From assembly GCA_963663865.1 (NCBI GenBank), contig OY760686.1, forward strand, positions 1,056,001-1,120,000: DNA of 64,000 bases. Reading direction: 5' to 3'. Under the pieces are notes generated by a model. The model ran no database searches. It was not told the origin of the DNA and saw nothing but the letters and a program-made list of their open reading frames with translations. Of this stretch, positions 17,881-23,144 are shown piece after piece. The stretch is from Spirochaetota bacterium. Its GTDB lineage: Bacteria > Spirochaetota > UBA4802 > UBA5550. The first letter of the stretch is position 1; each line of letters begins with the position of its first letter. Made by a program: the position numbers and the translations under genes.

Positions 17881-18063
17881 GGTACCGCCTGTGTATAAAC
17901 GCGGAATCCTGTCCCGCTGTGATTTCCTGTTATTTCAGATACGCCGTTGTATTAGGCTGTTTATGCGGTTTTTTTGTCAATTAAAAGGCATCCCGGCTGC
18001 TGCCCCTGTCAATATGTTGACATTCATCGCGGGGGATATAAACAGACAGTGACCGGAGGCCTC

Positions 18064-18600
18064 ATGAAGCGTTATTTTGAACTGTTCTATATTTTTGCCC
18101 GTATCGGGCTTTTCACGCTTGGCGGCGGTTATGTTATGATTCCGCTTATTCAGAAGGAGATAGTCGAAAACAGAAAGTGGGTTTCTGACGGAGAGTTTGT
18201 TGATATGCTGGGTATCGCCCAGTCAATTCCGGGTGTAATGGCCGTAAATCTGGCAATTTCGGCCGGCTATCGCATCAAAGGCGTGCGGGGCAGCGTTGCA
18301 GCCGCCATGGGCGCTGTGCTGCCTTCATTTAGCGTAATACTGGTGATAGCAGTCTTCTTATCAAGAGGTTTCAGCAATCCCATTGTGGAGAGCATCTTCA
18401 GCGGGATAAGGCCTGCCGTTGCAGCTTTGATAGCCGTGCCGGTCATCAACACGGCAAAGGCCGCCGGGCTTAACCGCTGGACTGTGTGGGTACCTGTGGC
18501 GGGAGCGCTCCTGATCTGGCCGATCGGGGTTTCCCCTGTATATGTGATTCTTGCCTGCGCGGCGGGCGGGTTTCTGTTTAACATGTGGAGGAAGGGATAG
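18064..18600 (+). CDS. chrA: Short-chain chromate transporter (CHR) subunit 1
   Basis: IGLFTLGGGY, AQSIPGVMAVN, GIRPAV; GGAGG RBS. Confidence 0.88.
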   Translation: MKRYFELFYIFARIGLFTLGGGYVMIPLIQKEIVENRKWVSDGEFVDMLGIAQSIPGVMAVNLAISAGYRIKGVRGSVAAAMGAVLPSFSVILVIAVFLSRGFSNPIVESIFSGIRPAVAALIAVPVINTAKAAGLNRWTVWVPVAGALLIWPIGVSPVYVILACAAGGFLFNMWRKG

Positions 18601-18602
18601 TC

Positions 18603-19142
18603 ATGCTGTATCTGGAGCTGTTCGCGGTCTTCTTTAAGATCGGCCTCTTCGGATTCGGAGGCGGTTACGCTATACTCTCGCTAATTCAGCAGGAGGTTGT
18701 CTTTAAACGGGGGTGGATATCGGCGTCCATGTTTACGGACCTTGTTGCTGTTTCACAGATGACTCCGGGTCCGGTAGGTATCAACTCGGCGACGTATATC
18801 GGATACAGCGTTACCGGGAACCCATGGGGCTCGGCGCTGGCTACCTTCGCCCTTGTGCTGCCCTCCTTTGTTTTGATGCTGGCAGTGACTATCTTTGTCT
18901 CGAAGTACATGAAGGGCAGGGCCGTATCTTCCATAATGCTGGGTATAAGGGTAATTGTTCCCGGGCTGATAGGAGCAGCCTTCCTGATGCTTCTGAACAG
19001 TCACAACTTCAGGGACATGAAGAGTGTGCCCCTGTTTGCTGCCGCGTTTTTGCTTTCCTACAGATTTAAGGTGCATCCCGCTATCATAATTATCCTTTCT
19101 GGAACGGCCGGGTTCTTTCTTTACGGATTCCCCATCCTGTAA
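18603..19142 (+). CDS. chrA: Short-chain chromate transporter (CHR) subunit 2
   Basis: IGLFGFGGGY, SQMTPGPVGINSAT. Confidence 0.88.
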   Translation: MLYLELFAVFFKIGLFGFGGGYAILSLIQQEVVFKRGWISASMFTDLVAVSQMTPGPVGINSATYIGYSVTGNPWGSALATFALVLPSFVLMLAVTIFVSKYMKGRAVSSIMLGIRVIVPGLIGAAFLMLLNSHNFRDMKSVPLFAAAFLLSYRFKVHPAIIIILSGTAGFFLYGFPIL

Positions 19143-19527
19143 AGCTGCCGCCTTTTTTTGCTGCGGCGCTGTGCCGGCATGGCCGGGGACTGTATTCACT
19201 GTTTATAAACAGCGAATTCCCCTGGTTGCTCAATAACGTGAAATGGCCGATGCTGTAAGGAAAAATGTAAATTCTAAAAAACTTGACAATATAGTAAAAA
19301 TGTAAGATAAAAATTGATAGTATCAGAAATTGTAAAAAAAACTCATATAATCAAAAAACACTTGAAGTTTTTAAATATTGATGTCAGTAATTAACAAGCA
19401 TGATGATTCCTGTTTTTTGATTATCAGGAATTGGAGATGTGTCTTTTTGTCGGGGGCTCGCGGCTGTGGTGAGCAGACATTGTGTGCGGGCTTTTGGTGA
19501 TTTATCAGCGCGAATAATGTGAGAGAA

Positions 19528-20631
19528 ATGAAACCAGTTGAGAACGCAGTTTGCGGGATTAATGTCACGACTTCATCAATATCCGCGTGTGTAAGGGAGC
19601 TTGATGCAGCAGGGGCTAATCTTGCTGGAAGAGAGTTCGGAATGAGTCCTGAGGGTGTTGACAGCCTTGTTTCCTGGCTCGAAAGCAGGAACGTAAGGCA
19701 TGTCGCTGTCGACTCTCCGGGTAATCACTGGAAGCCTCTCTGGAATGCTCTTGAGGGGAGCTTCGACCTCTACCTCGCTCACAGGGGCTGTTTGACTGAA
19801 TCAGGCCTGACTGATGACAGGGACGCCGGAAGTCTGATAGCCGAGCTTTTGCAGGAGGGCAGGCTTCGGACGAACTATGTACCCGATTCATATACAAGGC
19901 AGCTTCGCGACCTGACAAGGTTCAGGGAGGAGCTCATACAGACCTCTTCGATTCTTGGCAGTAAGATCCAGAATGTTCTCTCCGAGTCCGATATATCCGC
20001 CGTCTCAGCCAGGCCTGACGCTGATAGCCGTTCAATAAAGCAGCTTGCCAGGGTCATTTCCGATTATATTCCTGAAAAGGACGCATCTCTACTTGCTGGT
20101 GGTGTTTCTCCGCATGACAGCTTTATGCTGACTCATCTGGCCGGACAGCTGAAGGACACGGAAGGGCGTATCATGGAGGTTTCCGCAAGAATCAGGGATT
20201 TGCTGAAAGAGCGCGAGCCGTTTATTCAGAAGCTCATGCAGATACCCGGCATGGTGAGGCGCAACGCGGAGAACATAATAGCCGAGACGGGCTTTGACCT
20301 TGCCCGTTTCGAAACCTCTGATGATTTAGCGATGTGGGCCGGCTTCATTGTGGCGAAGGGCGCAAAGATGCCCCATTACGGCATAAACGGCAAGAGCGGG
20401 AAGCAGTGGCTGAGGAGGGCTCTTGCCGAGGCAGCACAGCCCGTTGCAGCCTGGAAGTCTTCTCCCTTTGCCGATGTTCACAGGTACCTTCAGAACAGGG
20501 TTGGAAACAGAAGGGCCATGGAGACTGTCTCCCGGCTTCTTCTCGACGTGGTTTATGAGCTCATTGCCTCGAACAGGTACTTTTCTTCTCTGCCGGGCTC
20601 TGTTTTTACCAGATACATGCTTGATAGTTAG
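19528..20631 (+). CDS. IS110-family (DEDD/RuvC plus Tnp20) recombinase homologue, apparently catalytically inactivated
   Basis: Colinear with IS110 transposases: CGINV, HVAVDS..HWKP, LTDDRDA, RQLRDLTRFR, IPGM...AENIIAE.G.D..RF.....L.MWAG, WLRRALAEAA; catalytic Asp replaced by Asn and Ser loop lost. Confidence 0.8.
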   Translation: MKPVENAVCGINVTTSSISACVRELDAAGANLAGREFGMSPEGVDSLVSWLESRNVRHVAVDSPGNHWKPLWNALEGSFDLYLAHRGCLTESGLTDDRDAGSLIAELLQEGRLRTNYVPDSYTRQLRDLTRFREELIQTSSILGSKIQNVLSESDISAVSARPDADSRSIKQLARVISDYIPEKDASLLAGGVSPHDSFMLTHLAGQLKDTEGRIMEVSARIRDLLKEREPFIQKLMQIPGMVRRNAENIIAETGFDLARFETSDDLAMWAGFIVAKGAKMPHYGINGKSGKQWLRRALAEAAQPVAAWKSSPFADVHRYLQNRVGNRRAMETVSRLLLDVVYELIASNRYFSSLPGSVFTRYMLDS

Positions 20632-20798
20632 TCAATTTATATAAATTGTAAGCGGATAGAAATATATAGATTCCGCGGCATCTTTTGCAGATTATTTCAG
20701 GAGGCGTATAACATTGCATGTAAAACCGGCGAATTTGACCCTTTGAGGGAGGTTCGGTTTTATAAATAAAACACTATTTTAGGAGGAGGAAATTTTTT

Positions 20799-23144
20799 AT
20801 GAAAAAATTTCTGTCTTTATTTTTACTCCTGCTTGCTGTAATGGGTTTTGGTATGACCTTTACGGCATGCAGCGATGACGACGGTGATAAGGAAGCTGAA
20901 GAGATTAAGAGCAGCGATCTCCCGTGTCAGGACACCGACAGCCTTTACTGTGTCGGCGGCAAGATTGTTATTCCAGAGGTCCAGATTGCTGAGGGCTCAG
21001 GAAAGACAATTATTGAGGTTGCAGCTGCTGCTGAAGACGGCACGGCATATACCCTCAAGTTCAGGGACCTGAACGGAAACGGAGCTGTTGACCCCTATGA
21101 GGACTGGAGACTGTCTGTTGAAGACCGTACAAACGATCTGCTTTCCAAAATGACCAAGGAGCAAAAGGCCGGTCTTCTCTATGAGAGCGGCTTCTCCGGC
21201 AGAATAAGCGATGGATCACTTACTGACTCGGTCAAGGAAGGCATGGTTACTTCACAGGTTCGAGTAGCGCTTTTTAGAAATCCAGGTGCAGGCTATACCG
21301 CTGAGCAAATGACTACTTACATCAACGATGTTCAGGCTTATGTCGAGTCTCAGCCTCTTGGTATTCCTTTCGTGTTCTGCTGTGACCCATCAACAGGAAC
21401 TGGGCTTAATACAGCGGGTGCTGCTTACGAAAAAAAGAACTCTATGGAGCCTATGGGTGACTGGCCGTATAGTCTCGGGCTCTCGTCACTTTCAGATGCT
21501 GAAGTTGTAAAGGAAATTGGAGATATGCATGCGGAAGAGTACAAGGCATGCGGTTTCAGGATGCTTCTCGGCCCGATGTGCGATCCTCTTGGGGACCCAA
21601 GATGGGCGCGTTCCTATGACACCTTTGGTACAGATCCTGAAAAAGCCGGCGAGTTCGCCAAAGCCTATATTCAGGGGCTTCAGCAGGTTGACGATGGTTC
21701 AGGAAACGCTCTTGTTCCCGGTATTGCCGCTACGCTTAAGCACTTCCCCGGCGCCGGAACAAACATGGGAGGTATGGACAGCCACAGAGAACAGGGCAGG
21801 TACGCTCTTTTCAAAGGCGATAACTTTGATGCGTCAAAAGAGGCCTTCAAAACAGCCTTTGAAGCAGGCCCACTTTGTGTTATGCCATGCTACAGCATCT
21901 ACATGACAAACTGGAACCCGACAACAAGGACCTTCGATACAGAGTTTGAAGAAGTTGGTTCCAGCTATGAGATGACCCTTATGTGGGACATTCTGAGAGA
22001 AGAGTGCGGATGGGACGGAATGGTTACGTCTGACTGGGGTGTTCTTGGTGGTTCTGCCTATGGACTTCTAATGTCAGACTTTGGCGTAACAACCCTTGCA
22101 GCTGATACAGATTTATCAGATCCTTCATATACCCCACCTGCAGACCTTCCTGATGGTGTGCCTGCATTTGCAGATTGGACTATCGAAGCAAGATCGGGTT
22201 GGGGAGGAACTACGTATGTTGCCGTTGAGCATGAGAGTTACCTCATTTACAAGTATCTTCAGGCTGGCGGACATCAGGTTGGAAACGGAAGCTACACTAT
22301 GTGGTTGAATGCCGTAGATAATAATTTCCTTGCTGAGTCTGATCTCGACTACCCTGCTGGAAAAGTTCTTGAGATGATGTTCAAACTTGGGGTCTTCGAG
22401 AATCCTTACAGGGATGCTTCAGTAGCTAACGCTGTTAGAGATGCAAATCTCGACAGGGCGAAGGAAATAATGAAAGAAACTACGGTTCTTGTTAAGAATG
22501 CGGGAGACGTACTTCCTCTTTCAGCGACGTCTGGAACTGTATATTTCGATGGTATCGACGATGGCGTTGTTGATGATTTTGCAAATACAACTACGACTGA
22601 CATGACACAGGCGGACTACATTATTCTGAGAGTTACCGGGCGTCATGGGAATTACTCAGGCCTCGCTGGCGGAGTGCCGATATCCTTCCAGGCAAATGTT
22701 TACTCATACAACTACGATGAGTGGAGACATTACACCGAAGCCGAGAATGAAGCTTCAAAAGATCCAGCAGACCCAGAGGACATTGGAGATTATGTTGTAA
22801 ATGACTCAAGTCGGGCTAATTCAATAGCACAGGCTGACAAGATTAAAGCTGCCATTGCTGCGAAGAAAGAGGGAGCAAAGCTCATCCTCTGCGTATTCGC
22901 TCCAAGGCCATTCCTCTTCGATGCTGACATCGATGTAACAAAAATTGATGCCCTTCTCGTTGAGTTCGGAATCTACGATGAGCAGCTTCTTGAGGTGATT
23001 TACTCAACTGACGGCTTCGAGCCTTCCGCAGTGCTTCCGTTCTGTATTCCGGCAAGCGATGCCGACGTAGAAGCCGCTTACGAGGACTTGTACAACGACG
23101 AGGCTAACAAGCTCTTTGACGAAGGAACAAGCCTTTCTTACTAA
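20799..23144 (+). CDS. Glycoside hydrolase family 3 (beta-glucosidase-like) lipoprotein
   Basis: Lipobox FTAC; FRDLNGNGAVDPYEDWRL, PRWARSYDTFG, LKHFPG, nucleophile motif TSDWG. Confidence 0.88.
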   Translation: MKKFLSLFLLLLAVMGFGMTFTACSDDDGDKEAEEIKSSDLPCQDTDSLYCVGGKIVIPEVQIAEGSGKTIIEVAAAAEDGTAYTLKFRDLNGNGAVDPYEDWRLSVEDRTNDLLSKMTKEQKAGLLYESGFSGRISDGSLTDSVKEGMVTSQVRVALFRNPGAGYTAEQMTTYINDVQAYVESQPLGIPFVFCCDPSTGTGLNTAGAAYEKKNSMEPMGDWPYSLGLSSLSDAEVVKEIGDMHAEEYKACGFRMLLGPMCDPLGDPRWARSYDTFGTDPEKAGEFAKAYIQGLQQVDDGSGNALVPGIAATLKHFPGAGTNMGGMDSHREQGRYALFKGDNFDASKEAFKTAFEAGPLCVMPCYSIYMTNWNPTTRTFDTEFEEVGSSYEMTLMWDILREECGWDGMVTSDWGVLGGSAYGLLMSDFGVTTLAADTDLSDPSYTPPADLPDGVPAFADWTIEARSGWGGTTYVAVEHESYLIYKYLQAGGHQVGNGSYTMWLNAVDNNFLAESDLDYPAGKVLEMMFKLGVFENPYRDASVANAVRDANLDRAKEIMKETTVLVKNAGDVLPLSATSGTVYFDGIDDGVVDDFANTTTTDMTQADYIILRVTGRHGNYSGLAGGVPISFQANVYSYNYDEWRHYTEAENEASKDPADPEDIGDYVVNDSSRANSIAQADKIKAAIAAKKEGAKLILCVFAPRPFLFDADIDVTKIDALLVEFGIYDEQLLEVIYSTDGFEPSAVLPFCIPASDADVEAAYEDLYNDEANKLFDEGTSLSY

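Follow-up and report, generated by a model that had tools for sequence, protein, structure and literature searches.

An apparently catalytically dead IS110 bridge-recombinase homologue and its GH3-linked paralogues in a Spirochaetota genome

Introduction

What becomes of a bridge recombinase that has lost the residues with which it recombines DNA? The question is raised by an open reading frame (ORF), here called d1, in a 64,000-nucleotide stretch of a Spirochaetota genome (GenBank assembly GCA_963663865.1, contig OY760686.1, positions 1,056,001 to 1,120,000 of the forward strand; this whole stretch is the window, and positions refer to it unless they are marked C1 or assigned to a locus). d1 lies between chromate-transporter genes (chrA) and a gene for a GH3-family lipoprotein. 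A first-pass annotation, made from the letters alone, had described it as an intact homologue of IS110 transposases with altered catalytic positions, and had suggested that it was exapted as an RNA-guided DNA binder, a regulator or a dominant-negative inhibitor of active IS110s. The genome (3.156 Mb in a single contig, 45.9% G+C) contains nine IS110 genes with such losses, d1 to d9, which we refer to as dead. To our knowledge, bridge recombinases, a new class of RNA-guided enzymes, have so far been known only as the enzymes of selfish insertion sequences and as the proposed deep ancestor of Nop5. We conclude here that d1 is probably a domesticated, that is exapted, non-catalytic IS110 derivative that has been kept by selection and is tied to its GH3 locus.

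Results

The d1 frame opens with an ATG at 19528, closes with a TAG at 20629-20631 and encodes 367 residues with no internal stop and no frameshift. Both Pfam domains of IS110 proteins were recognized above their cut-offs (PF01548, 52.1 bits against 29; PF02371, 35.8 bits against 21.3), and the NCBIfam equivalog model transpos_IS110 (NF033542) returned 119.2 bits, under its cut-off of 140. An AlphaFold2 (AF2) model built from a 110-row alignment reached a predicted local distance difference test score (pLDDT) of 88.9 and a predicted template modelling score of 0.88, its weakest parts being the middle of the coiled coil and residues ~275-290, the former serine loop. The closest folds in the PDB were those of the bridge recombinases IS621 (8wt6/8wt9) and ISCro4 (9t56), with E values of 4.5e-13 to 9e-12 and template modelling (TM) scores of 0.58-0.72. 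The domains and the IS621-like fold bear out the first-pass reading of an uninterrupted IS110 homologue, and the structural motifs W68, LRDLTRxR, IPG, AExG, RF and WxG are kept.

The active site is altered at most of its positions. In MAFFT alignments with active relatives bearing the GLDVHK, MESTG, KTDxxD and ESAGK motifs, the larger of which held 252 sequences, the five catalytic columns of d1 read N12, D62, D97, A100 and K or N, the residue in the serine column varying with the alignment. The replacements of the first aspartate by asparagine and of the glutamate by aspartate fall in these columns as annotated, and the codon positions that had been given for them and for the serine loop (19561, 19711 and 20335) all proved right. 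The claim that the TDxxD pair survives held for one of its members: the third aspartate is retained as D97 and the fourth is lost to A100, the proposed pairing of D96 with D99 having been one residue off. d1 is thus without four of the five recombination residues, with D97 retained and D99 standing beside the lost position. As had also been recognized, the serine loop is replaced, here by WAGFIVAKGAKMPH, and no serine stands at the catalytic position in alignments with active relatives or with IS621. The Tnp loop at that site (ESAGK, S241 of IS621) reads GAKMPH, and the 'yes' tripeptide with the catalytic serine is absent from the phmmer alignment of d1 with IS621. Any single mutation of D11, E60, D102, D105 or S241 is reported to abolish recombination by IS621 (PMC11208158), and from its alignments d1 is predicted to be unable any longer to cut or join DNA.

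Such losses are rare among database relatives. The full DEDDS set was present in 199 of 251, the remainder being mostly fragments or one-column variants, and the only full-length hits in this tally without at least three of the five residues were P0104-P0110, which comprise the genome's paralogues and a few relatives. Four catalytic residues are lost in d1, at least three in P0110, and four or five in the other alignable paralogues and in P0109; the replacements at the lost positions differ among the eight alignable paralogues. What the dead family holds invariant lies elsewhere, in W68, R131, R133, IPG, A247, E253, G255, F261, W270 and G272. These columns include no serine, tyrosine or aspartate, and their sole acidic residue is E253 of AExG; the LRDLTRxR helix and the IPG, AExG and WxG motifs of the Tnp domain are invariant across the family.

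The coiled coil and C-terminal tail are shortened, again as first noted. From LTRxR to IPG d1 spans 110 residues, and its tail after WxG measures 98, both under the minima of 120 and 106 (medians 127 and 124) in 68 full-length active proteins; in all ten dead proteins the coiled-coil span is 100-112 residues, compared with 120-151 in the active set. A d1 homodimer was predicted with a score of 0.79 (best control 0.01), a mark attained by 20 of 30 solved homo-pairs and by one of 23 single chains. Contact agreement between the runs was at least 82%, the partner pLDDT was at least 82, and the interface followed the coiled-coil helices. The score may reflect mere likeness to the solved IS621 dimers; on these models d1 probably retains the coiled-coil dimer.

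Nothing at the locus resembles a mobile copy. No terminal inverted or direct repeats bracket d1, in keeping with the lack of element ends in the first-pass annotation, positions 18500-21500 contain no tandem array or tandem repeats, and the d1 flanks have no second copy in the genome apart from the GH3 leader described below. Near-identical copies do not occur, the closest paralogue having 35% identity, and the site is occupied in a relative of ~95% identity. Positions 17900-21994 are covered by a 25-kb contig of this relative that comes from another sequencing run and differs by 196 substitutions and eight gaps (at 17922, 20694, 21288, 21295, 21429, 21441, 21787 and 21789). None of the gaps falls within 19528-20631, and the relative therefore keeps d1 in frame between chrA and GH3. 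We are confident that d1 is both catalytically dead and no longer mobile.

The nine dead genes of the genome comprise eight clear paralogues, d1 among them, and the very diverged d9 (C1:217354-218376), in which the Pfam domains are no longer recognizable. All nine frames are open, at mutual identities of 17-50%. A sensitive six-frame hidden Markov model (HMM) search revealed no broken remnants or further dead copies in the genome, and neither the six-frame HMM search nor a search with PF02371 detected an active IS110 there. The dominant-negative inhibition of active IS110s that had been proposed has no target in this genome and is implausible.

In a quick IQ-TREE analysis of 40 rows (10 dead and 30 active, the latter being every fourth representative of 390-450 residues plus six further hits, with all other hits omitted), the ten dead rows form one side of a branch of length 1.41, with a support of 99 in the SH-like approximate likelihood ratio test. 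d1 is the dead row nearest to the active proteins and has a branch of its own of 1.13 changes per site; the other groups are d4 with d5 (99), d3 with P0110 (96), and d7 with d8 and P0109 (97). For the youngest pair, d4/d5, dN is 0.39 and dS 1.0-1.7, and dN/dS ranges from 0.24 (NG86) to 0.39 (LWL85); for the genes adjacent to this pair it is 0.13-0.16 (GH3, dN 0.10) and 0.25-0.31 (AraC-type). The d4 and d5 proteins are 50% identical and their GH3 partners 84%. From these identities and the dN/dS values, the dead genes are estimated to evolve about four times faster in protein sequence than their GH3 partners, and yet under constraint. It is likely that d1 is maintained by selection for a host function.

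The family appears to be confined to a narrow lineage. An HMMER profile of the eight paralogues was searched against 1.84 billion (1.84e9) representative proteins, and the hits of the dead type were the genome's own proteins, P0106 (a 97% variant of d3), P0109 (a 79% variant of d8) and P0110, a distant dead member (285 bits) that has kept the glutamate alone of the catalytic residues; every hit at 228 bits or below was of the active type. Searches of 63 other genomes of the same family and 121 of the order yielded no member, their single strong hit, in G017, being an active IS110. Pattern scans of genome contigs (45 loci) and of metagenome contigs (the best 80 of 364 loci) also contained no dead-family member; their loci, all active-type IS110s of 21-30% identity, supplied the bridge-RNA model and controls described below.

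The dead genes share a neighbourhood. Among 2,594 ORFs kept from crude calling, 24 genes were labelled GH3 (BLASTP E <= 1e-20 to four queries) and 20 as membrane AraC-type genes (E <= 1e-8 to six queries; HTH_18 and HTH_AraC confirmed for six), and every one of the nine dead genes adjoins a GH3 gene. Seven lie directly upstream of it on the same strand (d1-d5, d9 and, across an IS3 insertion, d6), while d7 and d8 sit between a GH3 gene and an AraC-type gene. Seven of the nine, all except d1 and d2, belong to a same-strand cluster with an AraC-type gene. The adjacency to GH3 is far beyond chance, with the reservation that the nine cases are not independent (d4 and d5 are the products of a segmental duplication, and d6 and d7 have a single GH3 gene as their common neighbour). 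Other ORFs of ~360-420 residues beside GH3 genes proved on inspection to encode unrelated proteins. A query with d1's GH3 gave 41 first-look candidates in this genome and 1-16 in each of 25 relatives, none of which has a close homologue of it at E <= 1e-100. The wealth of GH3 (24) and membrane AraC-type (20) genes thus appears to be a lineage-specific expansion.

Active IS110 recombinases are accompanied by a bridge RNA, for which a model could be built. Alignment of the 250 nt upstream of 48 active relatives brought out blocks of conservation and a consensus structure of 26 pairs, compensatory changes being present in 21, and a covariance model of the 135-position core (R1) was applied to control loci that had not been used in building it. 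Full-length matches at E <= 1e-5 were obtained at 25 of 31 control loci, mostly just upstream of the gene, including two A+T-rich loci from the window's order (L010, 30 bits; L011, 31 bits); L012, L014, L015, L016, L070 and L071 were missed. At the dead loci (10 stretches, 36.7 kb, filters off, the 130-bp spacer upstream of d9 left out) the best match had 7.3 bits and E 1.3, and the whole genome gave 0 matches at E <= 1. The 231 nt upstream of d1 (19300-19530) fold no better than shuffled sequences (z = 0.04), and no motif is common to the nine upstream regions, a 22-nt palindrome occurring in those of d4 and d5 only. Because R1, the fold and the motif comparison all gave null results, the canonical bridge RNA appears to be lost from the dead loci; a new or very diverged RNA is possible. 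A search of window 18000-22000 and 15 loci with Rfam yielded nothing relevant, and is no test, since the RNA of active IS110 loci escaped Rfam as well. The RNA guidance proposed in the first-pass annotation is thus unsupported.

Table 1. Features of d1 and its surroundings (window coordinates except in the last row)
Feature	Position	Strand	Remarks
d1, catalytically dead IS110/bridge-recombinase homologue	19528..20631	+	Domain, alignment, AF2 and PDB fold evidence
RuvC-like domain (PF01548), residues ~1-120	19528..19887	+	Pfam, alignments, AF2 model
Shortened coiled-coil region; predicted homodimer interface	19888..20235	+	AF2 model, span comparison, dimer prediction
Tnp domain (PF02371)	20236..20628	+	IPG, AExG, RF and WxG kept; C-terminal tail shortened
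N12, in place of the first Asp	19561-19563	+	Motif G-I-N12-V-T-T
D62, in place of Glu	19711-19713	+	Motif V-D62-S-P
T95-D96-D97-R98-D99-A100, in place of K-T-D-x-x-D	19810..19827	+	D97 in third Asp column, A100 in fourth
WAGFIVAKGAKMPH loop from W270, in place of WAGxxPGxxESAGK	20335..20376	+	No catalytic Ser; low model confidence
Two half-size chromate-transporter genes (PF02417, chrA)	17974..19142	+	Upstream flank; syntenic in the ~95% identical relative
A+T-rich intergenic region upstream of d1 (385 nt)	19143..19527	+	No bridge-RNA-like element, no significant fold
Intergenic region, d1 to GH3	20632..20798	+	Holds leader motif CTATTTTAGGAGGAGGA at 20774-20790
GH3-family lipoprotein gene, 781 aa, d1's partner	20799..23144	+	PF00933 112 bits; PF01915 25.8 bits, below cut-off
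Leader copies elsewhere on C1	46453, 60049, 90501, 533594, 558500, 720285, 727131, 818835		

Discussion

The exaptation suggested for d1 is favored by several lines of evidence: nine open dead paralogues stand beside GH3 genes, a tree branch sets them apart from the active proteins, the d4/d5 pair has a dN/dS of 0.24-0.39, and the d1 locus is syntenic in the relative without indels in the ORF. We propose that an IS110 bridge recombinase ancestor kept its RuvC-like, coiled-coil and Tnp architecture while catalysis and bridge RNA were lost. Of the nine paralogues, which would make up a small family restricted to one lineage, d1 would stand closest to active IS110s; purifying selection would hold them within GH3 modules that consist of a dead IS110, a GH3 lipoprotein and, often, a membrane AraC-type regulator. 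We find it fairly probable that the function of d1 is tied to the GH3 locus. A role as a DNA- or RNA-binding regulator is a more tentative suggestion that draws on the fold and the gene neighbourhood: d1 might be a non-catalytic, dimeric nucleic-acid-binding protein or architectural factor with a local effect on how the adjacent GH3 gene is expressed. Each of the paralogues could be devoted to its own locus, and this would account for their diverging about four times as fast as the GH3 genes beside them. More speculatively still, the dead IS110s may form an unrecognized class of bacterial host proteins, locus-dedicated and diversified along with the GH3 family, that control or are needed for expression of their neighbours, either by reading DNA or mRNA directly or by means of a new type of guide RNA.

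Several observations weigh against this interpretation. Fifteen of the 24 GH3 genes have no dead IS110 neighbour. The d1 locus is without an AraC-type gene, and tblastn found no AraC-type remnant downstream of its GH3 gene. No dead gene precedes the GH3 genes most similar to d1's partner (82% and 72% identity), and homology between these loci is limited to the gene with a leader of 20-50 nt and a trailer of at most 60 nt. Since the closest GH3 genes lack a dead gene and homology stops 20-50 nt before the start codon, the adjacency of d1 and its GH3 gene is not simply the product of co-duplication. The limits of homology, which sets in 20-50 nt ahead of the start codon and breaks off 0-60 nt past the stop, suggest single-gene conversion or cassette exchange; from this limited extent, GH3 genes would seem to have been exchanged or converted as single-gene units, with the dead genes staying put. 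The G+C content at third codon positions (GC3) is 0.58 in d1, compared with 0.29-0.41 in d2-d8 and 0.46 in d1's GH3 partner, and because of this odd value d1 could be a later or separate acquisition. With the exception of d3, the GC3 of d2-d8 lies below that of their own GH3 partners. The dN/dS estimates come from the d4/d5 pair. In addition, the third hydrophobic-wedge position of IS621 (positions from PMC11208158) is, on a by-eye reading, Q in d1 and W in most aligned active relatives, and DNA melting may be weaker as a result.

Could the dead proteins still be RNA-guided, like TldR and dCas12f, with a guide of a new kind that is encoded in their own leader or elsewhere, targets the GH3 locus and represses or activates it? 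Their ancestral family is described as obligately RNA-guided (PMC11208160, PMC11208158), the IPG, AExG and WxG motifs and the LRDLTRxR helix are family-invariant, and the 385 nt of non-coding DNA that precede d1 contain a perfect inverted repeat of 14 nt. Precedent is reported in nuclease-dead, RNA-guided proteins that regulate nutrient-uptake loci (PMC12259090). Yet R1, which recovers 25 of 31 controls, reaches no more than 7.3 bits (E 1.3) across the dead loci and has no match in the whole genome, the nine upstream regions share no motif save the d4/d5 palindrome, and the sequence upstream of d1 folds like its shuffles (z = 0.04). We regard RNA guidance as unlikely. Alternatively, an ancestral site-specific IS110 might have inserted near the conserved GH3 leader and left copies that are decaying in place as non-functional relics. 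IS110 elements are described as highly site- and orientation-specific, and the dead ORFs are followed immediately by a GH3 leader of strong conservation. Evolution is fast (d4/d5 50% identical, their GH3 partners 84%), the A+T content of d2-d8 is higher than that of the surrounding DNA, and d9 has no recognizable Pfam domains. Decay is hard to reconcile with nine frames, and those of P0106, P0109 and P0110, that all remain open despite 17-50% identity and saturated dS, with a dN/dS well under 1 in the sole measurable pair, and with a genome in which remnants or broken copies are nowhere to be found. The relative's ORF is free of indels while the 167-bp spacer has one, and along the d1 branch, at 1.13 changes per site, neutral survival of an open frame is excluded by a rough estimate. 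Relic status is accordingly improbable in our assessment.

Two further explanations concern what the protein itself still does. The dead RuvC-like domain could serve as a docking module for AraC-type regulators or for GH3 export or maturation factors, as in Nop5, in which an IS110-like, inactivated RuvC fold is proposed to have been recruited for protein binding (bioRxiv 10.1101/2024.06.21.599552). Such a scaffold fits the finding that seven of the nine dead genes belong to same-strand clusters in which an AraC-type membrane protein is encoded, and a fast co-evolving interface would be expected to give the pattern seen between d8 and P0109, whose RuvC-like parts are 59% identical and the rest 93%. 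On the other hand, d1 and d2 have no same-strand AraC-type neighbour, and the fold matches to Nop5, Nop56 and Nop58 are weak (TM 0.3-0.38); we find it improbable that d1 is a scaffold of this kind. It is more improbable by far that d1 is still a recombinase working through substitute residues. D62, D96, D97 and D99 are kept and the change to N12 is conservative, but the invariant columns of the dead family hold no serine, tyrosine or aspartate and only E253 as an acidic residue, the serine loop is absent, near-identical copies do not occur, and each single catalytic mutation is reported to inactivate IS621 (PMC11208158).

The interpretation that we prefer, domestication of a non-catalytic IS110 derivative, can be set beside several known systems. 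With the IS110 bridge recombinases IS621 and ISCro4, d1 shares the three-part architecture, the fold, the structural motifs and the predicted coiled-coil dimer. It differs from them in that DEDD and the catalytic serine are gone, coiled coil and C-tail are shortened, the equivalog cut-off is not reached, no bridge RNA was detected, and the gene is immobile, in single copy per locus and fixed beside GH3. By homology d1 is an IS110-family protein, yet it departs from that family in catalytic residues, bridge RNA, mobility and equivalog score, and we would class it with the domesticated transposase derivatives. The logic resembles that reported for TldR and dCas12f-sigmaE, where an RNA-guided enzyme of transposon origin has become catalytically inactive and persists next to particular host genes, which for dCas12f are often nutrient-uptake loci (PMC12259090). 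TldR and dCas12f belong to an unrelated fold and family, and, as described, keep an adjacent guide RNA with identifiable targets, whereas none was found at d1.

More distant parallels exist as well. Nop5, Nop56, Nop58, Prp31 and the TIGR-Tas systems have been proposed to be related to IS110-like proteins, or to descend from them by exaptation long ago, with the RuvC-like fold inactivated and the serine element missing (10.1101/2024.06.21.599552). Nop-domain proteins work with a K-turn RNA, L7Ae and fibrillarin. The fold matches of d1 to Nop5/56/58 and Prp31 are weak (E 3.5e-4 to 1e-2), and that to TasR (9mty) has query and target TM scores of 0.53/0.64. d1, a bacterial, chromosomal and lineage-specific protein, is far closer to true IS110 proteins (up to 34% identity) than to Nop or Tas. 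The TIGR-Tas model NF052498 scored 12.3 bits in d1 against a cut-off of 100, and no tandem array of the kind that adjoins Tas proteins, the TIGR array, lies nearby. RAYTs, by the criteria of PMC5581495, resemble the d1 family in having diverged copies (nearest 35% in our case), no near-identical duplicates and a housekeeping-like retention; unlike d1, they are reported to keep catalysis and to act on REPINs (PMC5581495). That paper uses IS110 solely as an example of a selfish insertion sequence. A full-text literature search found neither dead bacterial IS110 homologues nor a link between IS110 and GH3, although the supplementary tables of survey papers, outside that search, might list some.

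If our interpretation is correct, the d1 family would represent the first case of the IS110 scaffold being exapted in bacteria and a living parallel to the proposed transition from IS110 to Nop5. Nine selected dead copies wired into carbohydrate-degrading modules would show that IS110s have been domesticated in bacteria, as TnpB has in TldR and Cas12f in dCas12f. They would also provide natural catalysis-free variants with which to ask what the scaffold can do without cutting, be it binding, bending, pairing or recruiting, and a handle on the regulation of a large GH3 family, and would be relevant to research on both bridge recombinases and glycan utilization.

Further observations on the loci

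The region upstream of d1 holds a perfect 14-nt inverted repeat (19347-19360 / 19411-19424, with a 50-nt spacer) and, just after chrA, the palindrome ATTCACTGTTTATAAACAGCGAAT at 19194-19217. A scan of 18900-21000 found no promoter on the + strand and no + strand terminator in the spacer between d1 and GH3; the lone terminator-like site on this strand, at 19098-19112, falls within the second chrA gene, at its 3' end, and the count is no higher than in shuffled sequences. Many GH3 paralogues have the GH3 leader CTATTTTAGGAGGAGGA in common, whether or not a dead IS110 gene accompanies them. In its ~40-nt form, AAACACTATTTTAGGAGGAGGAxTTTTTTATGAAAAAAATTCT (20760-20815), it precedes at least nine GH3 paralogues whose proteins are 30-80% identical. 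The 22-nt palindrome CCCTTGTCGGGRAGGACGACAG, with arms TTGTCG / CGACAR, occurs at three genomic sites (C1:557056-557077, 718827-718848 and 573858-573879), upstream of d4, of d5 and of a GH3 gene without a dead IS110, and could be an operator or a hairpin.

Other loci show features of their own. The insertion between d6 and its GH3 gene is an IS3-family element with HTH_Tnp_1 and rve ORFs at C1:60502-61772 (+), and the 800-bp region upstream of d6 contains, on the same strand, a 5S rRNA gene (95 bits; L025:3240-3356 (-), ~C1:63584-63700). The GH3 gene at C1:571518-573775 (-) is read as two overlapping frames of 158 and 611 residues and may carry a frameshift. Between d8 (C1:42886-44019) and P0109, residues 1-120 are 59% identical and residues 121-300 93%, a mosaic suggestive of recombination or else of a dead nuclease domain that evolves fast. 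At four active IS110 loci of other genomes (L039, L043, L048 and L062), R1 matched two or three times within ~13 kb, and these matches would represent neighbouring or tandem IS110 copies.

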